From IMG/VR virus record IMGVR_UViG_2734482790_000002: DNA of 45,103 bases, one strand, 5' to 3'. Within the stretch, counting starts at the first letter, position 1; every line of letters starts with the position of its first letter. The position numbers and the translations under genes were made by a program. This document shows, in pieces, positions 4,527-18,476 of this stretch. The stretch comes from a virus. Its lineage: Duplodnaviria; Heunggongvirae; Uroviricota; Caudoviricetes. The notes beneath the pieces were generated by a model that saw nothing but the letters and a program-made list of their open reading frames with translations, was not told the origin of the DNA and searched no databases.

Positions 4527-4718
4527 TTAAAGCCCTGCCGGGACTTCGTTATTATCCATGCGAATAACTTTATCGACCGGATAACAGTTACCGGGAATTT
4601 TCTGTTCCGCTGCGGCAGCCATGCATTCTTTCATTGAGCCGTATACGCCAGTAACCATGTCAACCGGTTCACCGGAAACAAGAAAAACCGTCAGAACAAG
4701 TGCAAATGTGGTATTCAT
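4527..4718 (-). CDS. small secreted or membrane protein (63 aa from the internal Met)
   Basis: N-terminal signal-like segment MNTTFALVLTVFLVSG; its ATG overlaps the upstream stop as ATGA (translational coupling). Confidence 0.45.
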   Translation of the reverse strand: MNTTFALVLTVFLVSGEPVDMVTGVYGSMKECMAAAAEQKIPGNCYPVDKVIRMDNNEVPAGL

Positions 4719-4903
4719 TGCCAGTATCCTTTTTGAGTCGGACGTAAACGGGCCAGCATAGAAAGAATGCAAATTTGATTTAATAACTCCCGTTCGTGTT
4801 TTCTCTTATTAATGGCATCTTCAGTAAATACAGGGTTACTGATTCTGACACCAATTTCAAAACAACCTTCAGACGTATTAACGTTTGGTAATAACGTTTC
4901 CAT
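4715..4903 (-). CDS. small hypothetical protein (62 aa), first gene of the leftward early operon
   Basis: ORF coupled to the downstream small gene; central basic/amphipathic stretch KRKHERELLNQICILSML; function unknown. Confidence 0.4.
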   Translation of the reverse strand: METLLPNVNTSEGCFEIGVRISNPVFTEDAINKRKHERELLNQICILSMLARLRPTQKGYWQ

Positions 4904-4920
4904 TATCGCGTCCTCAACAA

Positions 4921-5080
4921 TGAATTTTGTGATGCGGTGCCTGGTGCCTCCAGGTGACGTTAACCAGTTAACAATTAACGCCGGATACAGGGAAACCCAT
5001 AAACACCCGATACGGGGGAACTAATCGCTTTTTAACTGTTCCGCGTGCGCTCAGCCGCATTCACCGCATCACAAAATTCA
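4921..5080. repeat. perfect 19-bp inverted repeat pair (tgaattttgtgatgcggtg / caccgcatcacaaaattca) flanking ~122 bp that carries three TTAAC motifs
   Basis: exact reverse complementarity between 4921-4939 and 5062-5080; internal gttaaccagttaacaattaacg. Confidence 0.8.
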
Positions 5081-5381
5081 CTTTAAAAAGGGCGGACATC
5101 AGCCAGCAATGAAACTGATGCCGCCAAAGGTACAAATCAACATGGAGTGTTGTAGCGGGGTTGTCACTCAGGCGTATGGTCAACCTGACAACCCGGTGCT
5201 ACCAGTGGGGGTAAGGATAACCCCGCCATACTTACCGCCGCGCCATTTCGCGGAGTGCCACAACCGGAAGCGCACGGTCGAAGATACCGGCGACACGCAA
5301 CAGAGGGAGAAATGACTTCGCCGTGCGCTTTCGTGTTGTGTGCCTGCTTTTAACCACGTCAGGCGAGGTGGTTCCTGTCAT

Positions 5382-5425
5382 TCCCCAACGACAAGAAATC
5401 TGTATAATCTGGATATCCCCAACGA
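5382..5425 (+). promoter_or_regulatory. candidate sigma70 promoter (perfect -10 TATAAT with TG just upstream) flanked by direct repeats tccccaacga
   Basis: tgTATAAT at about 5401-5408; 10-bp direct repeats at about 5382-5391 and 5416-5425; good SD (aaggaa) and ATG at 5440 follow; the -35 is weak. Confidence 0.5.
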
Positions 5426-5439
5426 TCCAAGGAAATCAT

Positions 5440-5586
5440 ATGACAGAGCAAAGAGCACAAGCAGGTGGTGGCAATTCGACACATAAAACAGTCTGGGATC
5501 ACATACCAGAGAAAAACATTCGACCAAAACCATCTCCAGCTCCTTCGGAGGAGAGGGGGAACAGCAACAACCAAACAAGCAGGTGA
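5440..5586 (+). CDS. small hypothetical protein (48 aa), first gene of a rightward cassette
   Basis: ATG preceded by aaggaa SD; its stop overlaps the SD of the next gene; no recognisable motif. Confidence 0.35.
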   Translation: MTEQRAQAGGGNSTHKTVWDHIPEKNIRPKPSPAPSEERGNSNNQTSR

Positions 5587-5592
5587 TGATGT

Positions 5593-6039
5593 ATGGACCG
5601 GGATGATATTCTTGACAGAATTTTATATGGCTATTTTCTTGAGCAACTATTTTCTGTAGCGACTGGTCGTCTCGATAAACTTCTCTCAGTGGTGAGTATT
5701 ATCCTCGGTTCATCTGTCATTGGCGGATTCATTCCGGAAATTTCTGGCGTTTTTATTGTTGTGATCGCAACCGTCCAAACGATTTATGGATTCGGACAAA
5801 AGTCAGGTAACGCCATGAGAAAATCCGCAGAATATTTGCAGCTTTTTGATGATGCAGAAAAATATTCTGATTCTGAATTGAAAATGCAGTTAAAAATTCT
5901 GGAAAAAACGGATGATCATATTTGGTCATCACTTAAAGATATTGCGATCTTAAAAACACAGATCAAAATAGGCGTTTCCATCGAACAACAAGAGAAGCTG
6001 CCCACAAAATCTAAATTGATGCGATTTCTTTGTGGTTAG
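5593..6039 (+). CDS. membrane protein with two adjacent TM helices and a ~80-aa C-terminal soluble tail; candidate superinfection-exclusion or abortive-infection effector
   Basis: 148 aa; SD aggtga 6 nt upstream; TM1 LLSVVSIILGSSVIGGFI and TM2 ISGVFIVVIATVQTIYGF; converges on the cI operon. Confidence 0.6.
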   Translation: MDRDDILDRILYGYFLEQLFSVATGRLDKLLSVVSIILGSSVIGGFIPEISGVFIVVIATVQTIYGFGQKSGNAMRKSAEYLQLFDDAEKYSDSELKMQLKILEKTDDHIWSSLKDIAILKTQIKIGVSIEQQEKLPTKSKLMRFLCG

Positions 6040-6945: not shown

Positions 6946-7584
6946 TTAAATATCTTGTTGAATTTTAAAGCATACGCCCAATATGCAAGATAGATCATCC
7001 AGCATAATTGAAGGGTAGCGAGGATTCGTGGGGACTAAAAGAATATCCGGCCCTTCTATCTCCAGTTTACGAATGACAGGTGTTGTGGTCCCTTTGGGTA
7101 AGGCAAGGACAATATTTCCTGGTTGTACGGTTCGATCGGGATCAACAAAAACTGTTGAACCATTTGGGATGGAAACTCCCCCACCAGATGTTGACATACT
7201 GTCACTCTCTAGAACAACTGCAAAGGTATTGGCCGGGATTTCTCCGACAAGCTGCACACAAGAGGTTATTGAGGAATTTTTCATATAATCACTCCAGCTT
7301 GCTGCCTGCTGAAGTGATAGTAGCGGAACCGTTTTTATCGGCGGTAAAGATAGATCAAGCGAATCACCTGTATTTAACTCTCCTCCATTAAGAAGCCAAT
7401 TTTCGTTTACTTTCAATATCTTTGCCAGTGAACTTATGTAACGCGAGGACGGCGCTCCTCCACCGTTCATCCATTGACTTACGGAGCCTTTTGATGCGCC
7501 AGTGGCATTGACAAGGTCTTTGCCTTTCAGGTTTAGCGCATGCATACGTTGGGTTATGCGTTCAGATATTGTTTGCTTGCTCAT
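6946..7584 (-). CDS. cI: CI-type prophage repressor (HTH-XRE N-terminal domain plus S24 LexA-like autopeptidase domain)
   Basis: 212 aa; N-terminal HTH (GASKGSVSQWMNG); C-terminal S24 domain with catalytic Ser (VLESDSM) and Lys (IRKLEIEG); divergent from cro. Confidence 0.9.
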   Translation of the reverse strand: MSKQTISERITQRMHALNLKGKDLVNATGASKGSVSQWMNGGGAPSSRYISSLAKILKVNENWLLNGGELNTGDSLDLSLPPIKTVPLLSLQQAASWSDYMKNSSITSCVQLVGEIPANTFAVVLESDSMSTSGGGVSIPNGSTVFVDPDRTVQPGNIVLALPKGTTTPVIRKLEIEGPDILLVPTNPRYPSIMLDDLSCILGVCFKIQQDI

Positions 7585-7646
7585 GTTTTGATTTTAAAAC
7601 ACAGATGGTTTTGTTTCTTGACTTTCTTTGGTTTTGATTATTAAAC
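7585..7646. promoter_or_regulatory. cI-cro intergenic operator/promoter region with two 16-bp direct repeats and a TTGACT -35-like hexamer
   Basis: gttttgattttaaaac (about 7585-7600) and gttttgattattaaac (about 7631-7646); TTGACT at about 7618-7623. Confidence 0.45.
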
Positions 7647-7675
7647 TTTTGGCGTTCAGTTTTATGGAGCGACTC

Positions 7676-7906
7676 ATGAAAAAATCAGAAGTATTAGGCT
7701 ATTTTGGCGGAGTTGTTAAAACAGCCGCAGCTCTAGGAACGTCAAAAACCACAGTCAGCATGTGGGGGGAAGAGGTTCCGTGGAAATGGGCGTTGCTAAT
7801 TCAGGCAGTCACTGCCGGGGCGCTCAAATATGAGTTACACATACCGACGGTTGTCATTCCCGGTTCTGATCATAATCCGCCTTCTAACCAAGGGGGGGAT
7901 TCATGA
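7676..7906 (+). CDS. cro: Cro-like small HTH regulator
   Basis: 76 aa from the Met with a ggag SD; HTH-like ALGTSKTTVSMWG; first gene of the rightward operon, divergent from cI. Confidence 0.7.
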   Translation: MKKSEVLGYFGGVVKTAAALGTSKTTVSMWGEEVPWKWALLIQAVTAGALKYELHIPTVVIPGSDHNPPSNQGGDS

Positions 7907-18399: not shown

Positions 18400-18476
18400 G
18401 CGGGTATCGTATAATGGCCATTACCTCAGCTTTCCAGGCTGATGATGTGGGTTCGATTCCCGCCACCCGCTCTCCA
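18400..18476 (+). tRNA. tRNA-Gly(UCC)-like gene, possibly degenerate at the 3' end
   Basis: cloverleaf: acceptor gcgggta, D-arm gtat-aatggcca-ttac, anticodon arm tcagc-ttTCCag-gctga, T-arm gtggg-ttcgatt-cccgc; near-identical to E. coli glyT as I recall it; A7:C66 mismatch and 3' tail tCTCCA rather than CCA. Confidence 0.6.

Follow-up and report, generated by a model that had tools for sequence, protein, structure and literature searches.

DicF, a long-studied small RNA encoded by prophages, inhibits division of the host cell, and the dicF/dicBF operon of the Qin cryptic prophage of Escherichia coli K-12 was reportedly described by Faubladier et al. in 1990. Here, we analyze a GC-rich region around positions 5100–5340 of a 45,103-nucleotide (nt) stretch of viral DNA (class Caudoviricetes; IMG/VR record IMGVR_UViG_2734482790_000002), hereafter the window. 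A previous sequence-only reading, made without database searches, had placed this region at the head of a leftward early operon and considered that it could be a cis-acting antitermination RNA like put of phage HK022, an unusual nut region, or a regulatory leader or small RNA. We conclude that the region is very probably the dicF locus of a Qin-type dicB operon on the minus strand of an E. coli lambdoid prophage, the leftward transcript of which would be processed by ribonuclease III (RNase III) and RNase E to a DicF-family small RNA.

In K-12, DicF is processed from a polycistronic transcript starting at dicBp, with RNase III required for a 190-nt form, which accumulates, and RNase E for a 53-nt form (Ragunathan et al. 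2023, PMC10448788). From Northern bands, that study deduced both transcripts ending at the terminator (ydfABC–dicF) and transcripts continuing to ydfD, and it detected no promoter within the dicBF operon (PMC10448788). A review further describes an RNase III cut 3′ of DicF in the read-through RNA, which gives an alternative 72-nt form (PMC9438474).

The window carries a probable Qin-type dicF–dicB locus

The minus strand of 4890–5450 can be matched nucleotide by nucleotide to the K-12 Qin interval ydfC–dicF–dicB. Both arms of a long hairpin, the stretch from these arms to dicF, the terminator and the dicB leader are near-identical between the two, whereas the DicF body differs. The order of elements is also that of the K-12 dicBF operon: a DUF1391/ydfA-like gene and, further downstream, the long hairpin, a 5′ domain described below, dicF with its terminator, a structured leader, dicB and a ydfD-like gene; hairpin arms, 5′ domain and dicB leader can be aligned directly. 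Pfam matches at the locus are to DicB, DUF1482 and DUF1391/ydfA. The gene starting at 4903, taken by the sequence-only reading for the first leftward early gene, is in fact dicB, which encodes a cell-division inhibitor (4715–4903, minus strand; Pfam DicB PF05358, E = 3.9e-36; annotated as dicB in RefSeq at the identical locus). It lies 3′ of the DicF terminator, and further leftward genes are found upstream of it.

The locus is widespread in the species. A 1-kb stretch (4700–5700) matches 4733 of 5426 complete E. coli genomes, the annotated features beneath the matches being dicB and the DUF1482 gene. The sub-region 5139–5400 matches 4642 of the same 5426 genomes, at up to nine places per genome, mostly with 80–90% identity and almost always in unannotated sequence.

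The transcript carrying the region probably starts at the only pL-like promoter detected by a promoter scan (TTGACC-17-TAAACT, 6861–6833, minus strand), which adjoins an S24/helix-turn-helix repressor gene (6946–7584, minus strand); a P22_Cro-like gene is oriented divergently (7628–7906, plus strand). The region therefore lies well inside the leftward operon rather than at its head, ~1.5 kb downstream of the putative promoter. The sequence between the two is occupied by an inserted rightward cassette, a phrog_6937 gene and a DUF1391/ydfA-like gene. Two differences from K-12 are apparent here: the phrog_6937 gene and the convergent two-gene cassette replace ydfB and ydfC, and the repressor is an S24 (LexA-like, cleavable-type) protein where K-12 has DicA.

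The DicF RNA of the window is a variant. The Rfam DicF family (RF00039) matches 5090–5138 on the minus strand over the full length of the model (1–52), with 38.7 bits and E = 2.6e-6. The variant and its intrinsic terminator span 5138–5085 (minus strand) and comprise a GC-rich hairpin (5125–5091) followed by the U-tract UUUUU (5089–5085), a site that was also found by a terminator scan. It occupies the same position as K-12 dicF, upstream of dicB, and can be aligned with it; its body is ~10 nt shorter.

Alignment with K-12 delimits an AU-rich single-stranded linker, ACUCCAUGUUGAUUUGUACCUUU (5148–5126, minus strand), which likely contains the seed region. By homology, this linker would also hold the RNase E site that sets the 5′ end of the short DicF, the exact cut being one that we infer. 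On the other side of the small RNA, the dicB leader (5084–4904, minus strand) forms a second long-range hairpin built on a perfect 19-nt inverted repeat (5080–5062 with 4939–4921). This hairpin is probably the RNase III site that would give the alternative 72-nt DicF 3′ end. Rfam STnc100 (RF02076) matches the dicB leader (4871–5092, minus strand) with 37 bits, below its gathering score of 47; the weak match concerns a module that lies downstream of DicF and is distinct from the 5′ domain.

A conserved pseudoknotted domain forms the 5′ part of the DicF precursor

GC content is 0.53–0.62 over 5100–5349, compared with 0.33–0.49 in most of the flanking sequence. The sequence 5080–5400 is more stable than its dinucleotide shuffles on either strand: the minus strand (321 nt) folds at −127.5 kcal/mol (z-score −4.0, none of 100 shuffles as stable) and the plus strand reaches a z-score of −3.7 (1 of 100 shuffles as stable). 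The region is thus as GC-rich and as structured as had been claimed. All four of the stems previously quoted are present in the sequence, including ggttgtca/tgacaacc (5159–5166 and 5187–5194), ggggt..acccc (5208–5224) and ccgcg..cgcgg (5239–5254). The open reading frames (ORFs) in the region, of 68 amino acids on the plus strand and of 49 and 40 amino acids on the minus strand, are not conserved among 111 homologous copies, in keeping with the earlier view that none is convincing. The suggestion of a small RNA or regulatory leader is supported, as the region is a non-coding structured RNA that contains a small RNA, with the strand and the dicF identity having been missed.

Minus-strand positions 5265–5149 form a conserved pseudoknotted four-helix domain of ~120 nt, as defined by our covariance model R1 and by pair counts. 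Helix P1 (5265–5257 with 5156–5149; consensus GGUUGUGGC with GCUACAAC) closes the domain. It is followed by the P2 hairpin (5253–5238, CCGCG-AAAUGG-CGCGG), the junction J2/3 CGGUAAGUAUGGC (5237–5225) and the variable P3 hairpin (5224–5208), which occurs with at least eight different stem sequences around a pyrimidine-rich loop. Next, a junction that varies but has CACC at its end in the consensus leads to P4 (5194–5186 with 5166–5158; consensus GGGUUGUCA with UGACAACCC), which carries a 19-nt loop (5185–5167). A pseudoknot pairs the junction with the P4 loop, GUAUGG (5231–5226) with CCAUAC (5179–5174). All of these elements are on the minus strand.

Copies of the domain were retrieved from GTDB genomes, IMG/VR and metagenomes with patterns built on conserved blocks, yielding 141 true copies and 120 more. 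A plain MAFFT alignment has 94.3% of its cells paired and 12 pairs with two-sided changes, compared with 4.1 ± 1.3 in shuffles. Two other alignments were fitted to the model, a procedure that favors structure: one with 66 distinct rows (95.9% paired; 14 two-sided-change pairs against 3.6 ± 1.3 in shuffles) and one including divergent metagenome copies (94.7% paired; 14 against 5.8 ± 1.6). None of 500 shuffles reaches the observed values for any of the three alignments, and slid controls are 33–57% paired. P1, P3, P4 and the pseudoknot all covary, which backs the fold of the 5′ domain.

The pseudoknot is 99–100% paired, and the same compensatory change within it, UA to CG, is found in two unrelated backgrounds, namely the phage P1 lineage and loci L226/L270 within the Qin type. 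Four P4 positions are changed in a compensatory way in Izhakiella. Helices P1 and P4 are wholly replaced in loci L220 and L184, the latter being also without P2 and retaining the junction and loop. From E. coli prophages to Erwinia, phage P1 and an AT-rich phage-like contig, the unpaired junction and loop sequences are near-invariant while the helices covary. The conserved structure in related prophages that the earlier work had named as a test is therefore present. Conservation is also uneven along the RNA: over 24 representative loci, mean pairwise identity is 80% for the 5′ domain and 33% for the linker and small-RNA part.

Model R1 scores the window copy at 141.2 bits (5142–5267, minus strand) and, with filters off, detects no second copy in the 45-kb window, near pR or elsewhere; each of 86 loci likewise has one copy. 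A covariance-model search against known RNA families, which had been called for, returned DicF and STnc100 below threshold for the neighboring segments. For the 5′ domain itself, it returned nothing: 5142–5267 has no match in Rfam 15 at E values up to 10, and homologous domains elsewhere have no Rfam match either (eight loci at the gathering score and three loci at E up to 0.01). We found no discussion of this domain in the DicF literature as searchable.

An alternative 11-bp pairing between the 5′ strand of P3 and the 3′ strand of P4 (inverted repeat I3, used in the minimum-free-energy structure) was rejected because its partners do not covary in L041, L058 and phage P1, whereas P3 and P4 do. 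The P3 loop (within 5208–5224 and its homologs) is always pyrimidine-rich (UUAUCCUU, UUCCUCCAUUG or CUUCCUU); it resembles an anti-Shine–Dalgarno sequence and could pair with purine-rich sites.

A long hairpin marks the putative RNase III boundary

A long imperfect hairpin precedes and overlaps the domain (5344–5255, minus strand; fold and inverted repeat), with a 5′ arm at 5344–5316, a 3′ arm at 5283–5255 and a variable apical part. The long-range pairing noted by the sequence-only reading (5268–5284 with 5317–5333) is real and forms part of this longer pairing, which extends over 5255–5283 with 5316–5344. Both arms are common to 42 distinct Qin-type copies with a shared alifold structure, and the apical 45 nt vary freely.

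A distance of 190 nt upstream of the annotated 3′ end of K-12 dicF corresponds to the point cgaccgtgcg|CTTCCGGTTGTGG, within the 3′ arm of the hairpin and 5–6 nt before helix P1; the equivalent point in the window is at ~5270–5280. Because the 190-nt boundary falls in this stem, the long-range pairing is the homolog of the stem cut by RNase III in K-12. Other lineages have an equivalent upstream stem at the same place with different sequences: CAACGAUGAG pairs with CUCAGCGUUG in the cdtI type, CACAACGAAUAAAGCAC with GUGCUCUAUUCGUUGUG in L209, and GAGAGCAUUG with CAGUGCUCUC in the Erwinia type, where the stem closes a multi-hairpin region. The 5′ strand of helix P1 (GGUUGUGG) is part of the 3′ stem arm in the Qin, cdtI and L209 types. 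The stem and P1 are therefore mutually exclusive, which suggests that the 5′ domain would close only once the stem is cut or melted.

Deletions have altered two loci, L023 (Shigella flexneri) and L092: both have lost the 3′ arm of the stem together with the 5′ strand of P1, so that the 5′ arm (GGCACACAAC) runs straight into P2. The DicF terminator of L023 has decayed as well.

The window thus has all of the substrate features conserved, a 5′ domain with a covarying and pseudoknotted fold, and a stem that overlaps P1. We propose the following pathway, several steps of which have been demonstrated in K-12. The leftward early transcript from the repressor-controlled pL-like promoter would run through the region, as it does in K-12, and RNase III would cut the long hairpin (5344–5255) to generate the 5′ end of a ~180–190-nt pre-DicF, again following the K-12 precedent. 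Pre-DicF would consist of the four-helix pseudoknotted domain (5265–5149), the AU-rich linker and the terminator hairpin with its U-tail (5125–5085). Cleavage of the stem may free P1 and let the 5′ domain fold. An RNase E cut in the linker, known from K-12, would then release a short DicF-family RNA of ~50 nt predicted to regulate host mRNAs by antisense action, together with Hfq. At the DicF terminator, transcription would either stop or read through, the latter allowing expression of dicB, exonuclease, xis and int, which are the genes lying past this terminator in the window. In our working model, the 5′ domain would serve as a conserved scaffold of the long RNA, setting the processing boundaries and stabilizing the 190-nt form, and the linker and terminator part would be a fast-evolving targeting part that gains new targets.

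The 5′ domain is shared by phages with different downstream elements

Most E. coli genomes, that of K-12 among them, carry the domain. Among the 141 copies from the first two scans, all but a few have a GC hairpin and a run of at least five U about 40–125 nt downstream, the exceptions being truncated, decayed or endowed with a 4-U run.

In phage P1, the annotated "dicF-like region" of the ban-operon leader (misc_feature 68791–68892, NC_005856) is partly overlapped by the same pseudoknotted domain (R1, 93 bits), in which P3, P4 and the pseudoknot (GCAUGG with CCAUGC) have changed in a compensatory manner and after which a terminator follows. This copy departs from that of the window in several respects: it lies directly (~35 nt) after the C1-controlled P1ban/P2ban promoters and has no upstream hairpin, its closing helix has another sequence, and it is followed by a simple terminator (CCCAUCUUCGGGUGGG and a U-run) and then tRNA genes, with no DicF-like hairpin or dicB. 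In phage cdtI and related Escherichia, Citrobacter and Salmonella phages, as well as in Erwinia, Izhakiella and Trabulsiella genomes, the domain sits in a long untranslated leader downstream of a repressor gene and precedes a DicF-like terminator hairpin and then early-left genes. In L184, the AT-rich, phage-like metagenome contig, a tRNA-like element follows the domain within the 170 nt examined.

The domain frequently has a tRNA gene or tRNA-like element as its neighbor. True tRNAs lie downstream in P1-type loci (including L003 and L214), and weak matches to the Rfam tRNA model occur by the domain in L184 (1319–1405, minus strand) and L220 (1867–1991, minus strand). T-arm-like hairpins lie upstream in Erwinia-type leaders (L038, L041 and L085), and the homologous stretch is annotated as tRNA-Arg in Salmonella phage SPC32H. 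An ARAGORN search for tRNAs by the domain in lambdoid loci found none.

Other variations concern the flanks of the domain. Salmonella phage 118970_sal3 (L163, 3000–3283) has the same flanks, including both strands of helix P1, around a replaced interior that begins like the first ~20 nt of the dicB leader (AAUGCGGCUCAGCGCACGCGG), which suggests that RNA modules are interchangeable between fixed flanks. Erwinia-type copies have an enlarged terminator hairpin with a Shine–Dalgarno sequence and an AUG in its loop. The stretch after it shows conservation between E. coli phage cdtI and Erwinia and could be read as a peptide (..F(T)xQxRASPxDGLITQS..), yet ACAAAACAGAGAAGA and UCUUCUCUGUUUUGU within it pair to a long hairpin as well, so that it is a candidate small ORF or RNA. 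The loci concerned are L004 (2597–2797) and the sequence downstream of the domain in L038, L041, L085 and L209. The rightward region of phage cdtI has adjoining matches to the C4 antisense RNA and isrK families (L004, 40–228, minus strand).

Alternative explanations

A number of observations weigh against the dicF assignment and the pathway proposed for it. The DicF match of 38.7 bits falls below the Rfam gathering score of 48, and a search of the whole window at gathering scores retrieves only IS009 and one tRNA, with no DicF. The 5′ seed and the loop of the window DicF differ from those of K-12. RNAduplex pairing with ftsZ (−70 to +45) gives a z-score of −0.06 for the window variant and of −0.9 for authentic K-12 DicF, and the comparison has no discriminating power. 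Processing has been shown in K-12 only, and what the window prophage offers is the substrate features, that is the long stem and the AU-rich linker. A convergent rightward cassette (5440–6039) stands in place of ydfB and ydfC between the pL-like promoter and dicF. The scaffold role of the 5′ domain is one that we infer. Finally, the domain is also found where no DicF-like RNA follows, as with the simple terminator of phage P1 and the tRNA-like element of L184, which argues for a function of the domain's own.

This last point bears on the possibility that the domain is an autonomous functional RNA, for instance a binder or decoy for a host or phage protein, merely co-transcribed with DicF. The conserved entity would then be a 150–190-nt RNA delimited by a terminator at one end and, at the other, by a processing site or the start of transcription. 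DicF is much less conserved than the domain, whose unpaired junction and loop hardly change as its helices covary. In addition, the phage P1 copy begins shortly after a pair of promoters and ends at a terminator, and the 190-nt form accumulates in K-12 (PMC10448788). Nothing in the sequence points to a ligand or protein, however, and we consider this explanation rather unlikely, although it is compatible with a DicF precursor and not exclusive of it. A related and fairly improbable proposal is that the 5′ domain represents a distinct, mobile class of phage structured RNA with a molecular activity of its own, be it on RNA polymerase or termination in cis, in ligand sensing or in host-factor binding. 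Its hallmarks would be the closing helix, the variable hairpin, a helix loop pseudoknotted with the junction GGUAAGUAUGG and the near-invariant unpaired nucleotides. Its range takes in most E. coli genomes, the phage P1 ban leader, the AT-rich phage-like contig and the pL leaders of N-less lambdoid phages of Escherichia, Citrobacter, Salmonella, Erwinia, Izhakiella and Trabulsiella.

The sequence-only reading had reported no Arg-rich N-type antiterminator, and our analysis agrees: a scan of all window ORFs for arginine-rich motifs gave nothing plausible near pL or pR, and the early genes have no antiterminator match in Pfam or PHROG, as is also the case around the domain in seven related loci. 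The lack of an N-like protein would be expected if the domain were a cis-acting antitermination RNA, similar to HK022 put or Bacillus EAR, that confers read-through of the DicF terminator and Rho resistance in N-less phages. So would its constant location in an untranslated early leader and the intrinsic terminator that follows nearly all sampled enterobacterial and P1-type copies. Genes to be reached past the terminator are dicB, exonuclease, xis and int in the window, ban in phage P1 and early-left genes in the cdtI type, and read-through transcripts do exist in K-12 (PMC10448788). The HK022 putL and putR RNAs are alike in being structured RNAs of early transcripts, upstream of terminators, in a lambdoid phage without N-dependent antitermination.

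The comparison with HK022 nevertheless breaks down in detail. The region has chance matches only against the whole HK022 genome in blastn, and model R1, with filters off, finds no match there at E up to 1. The put RNA consists of two stem-loops in ~70 nt (PMC9378689), whereas the domain has four helices and a pseudoknot in ~120 nt. HK022 has two put copies, one behind each early promoter; the window has one domain only, located 1.5 kb from the promoter and lacking a counterpart on the pR side, and other loci have one copy each. Terminator-like sites downstream on the minus strand are no more numerous than expected by chance, and no terminator other than that of DicF stands out. In most lineages, a long stem that is an RNase III site in K-12 bounds the domain on its 5′ side, and a boxA-like motif 5′ of the domain in other lineages is better explained as the 3′ arm of this stem. 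A domain bounded by a processing stem or transcription start and by a terminator fits a discrete, processed, stand-alone RNA better. Membership in the put family, as earlier suggested, fails on every feature testable here, and cis-acting antitermination in the broader sense is decidedly unlikely.

A riboswitch-type sensor controlling the following terminator would account for the aptamer-like layout of the domain, with its closing helix, multi-helix junction, invariant junction and loop nucleotides, pseudoknot and single variable hairpin, and for a conserved core with covarying helices ahead of an intrinsic terminator in enterobacterial and P1-type copies. The spacer between domain and terminator is, however, highly variable in length and sequence, no conserved alternative pairing that might act as an expression platform was seen by inspection, and L184 has its tRNA-like element and not an evident terminator within the 170 nt examined. 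The neighboring genes do not suggest a ligand and no known riboswitch class in Rfam matches. We regard this explanation as very unlikely.

It is highly improbable that the region serves as an atypical nut site for an N-like protein whose gene lies elsewhere. It shares with lambda nut a position in the early leftward transcript and a small hairpin, and in some lineages P2 adjoins a pyrimidine-rich segment loosely like boxA. In contrast to lambda, neither the early region of the window nor the related loci encode an Arg-rich N-like ORF, and the P2 loop is the 6-nt AAAUGG, not a boxB-type pentaloop, P2 being moreover dispensed with in L184. The boxA-like segment is degenerate in the window (GUGCGCUUCC) and paired with the upstream arm in every lineage. 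The nut definition as drawn from lambda thus does not apply. We also considered a boxA/Nus element for the motif GUGCUCU(N)UUCG found just 5′ of the domain in non-Qin lineages, and downgraded this idea because the motif is the 3′ arm of the upstream stem, with a covarying partner in every lineage.

Protein coding, to which the 68-amino-acid hypothetical protein called by the NCBI pipeline on the plus strand (5109–5315) at the identical locus of strain NS-NP030 would testify (NZ_AP024126.1, WP_157898028.1), is almost certainly not the function of the region: the protein has no Pfam match and a marginal 19-residue PHROG match only, most homologous loci carry no annotation beneath the match, among 111 copies the length of the longest ORF across the module varies between 0 and 84 amino acids (12 in K-12), length differences and indels are not multiples of 3, and substitutions are compensatory for RNA pairing. 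Since neither strand of the module has a conserved ORF, we regard this protein, encoded antisense to the DicF precursor, as a probable gene-calling error.

Neighboring features of the window

The convergent cassette upstream of dicF comprises two plus-strand genes, encoding a 48-amino-acid protein and a 148-amino-acid protein (phrog_6315), preceded by a promoter-like TATAAT at 5403–5408. The larger protein has a weak PADLOC match to an SLATT-type effector associated with DRT systems (E = 0.002) and is possibly a moron or defense gene product. The two Rfam families retrieved at gathering scores lie far from the locus: the IS009 RNA family matches 44865–45063 (plus strand, 223.7 bits), near the right end of the window, and a tRNA-Gly gene (anticodon TCC) is located mid-prophage at 18400–18472 (plus strand).

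Implications for DicF RNAs and lambdoid phages

The locus appears to be one more copy of the classic dicF/dicB division-inhibition module, with a variant small RNA, and it reveals no new antitermination system. DicF variants like that of the window score below the Rfam threshold and stay unannotated. The more notable point concerns the 190-nt DicF precursor, itself long known: its 5′ part folds into a pseudoknotted domain under strong constraint, common to phage P1 and other phages. If this domain proved to be active in its own right, the long form of DicF would be seen differently, and the domain would define a phage RNA module of wide occurrence, directly open to experiments in K-12.

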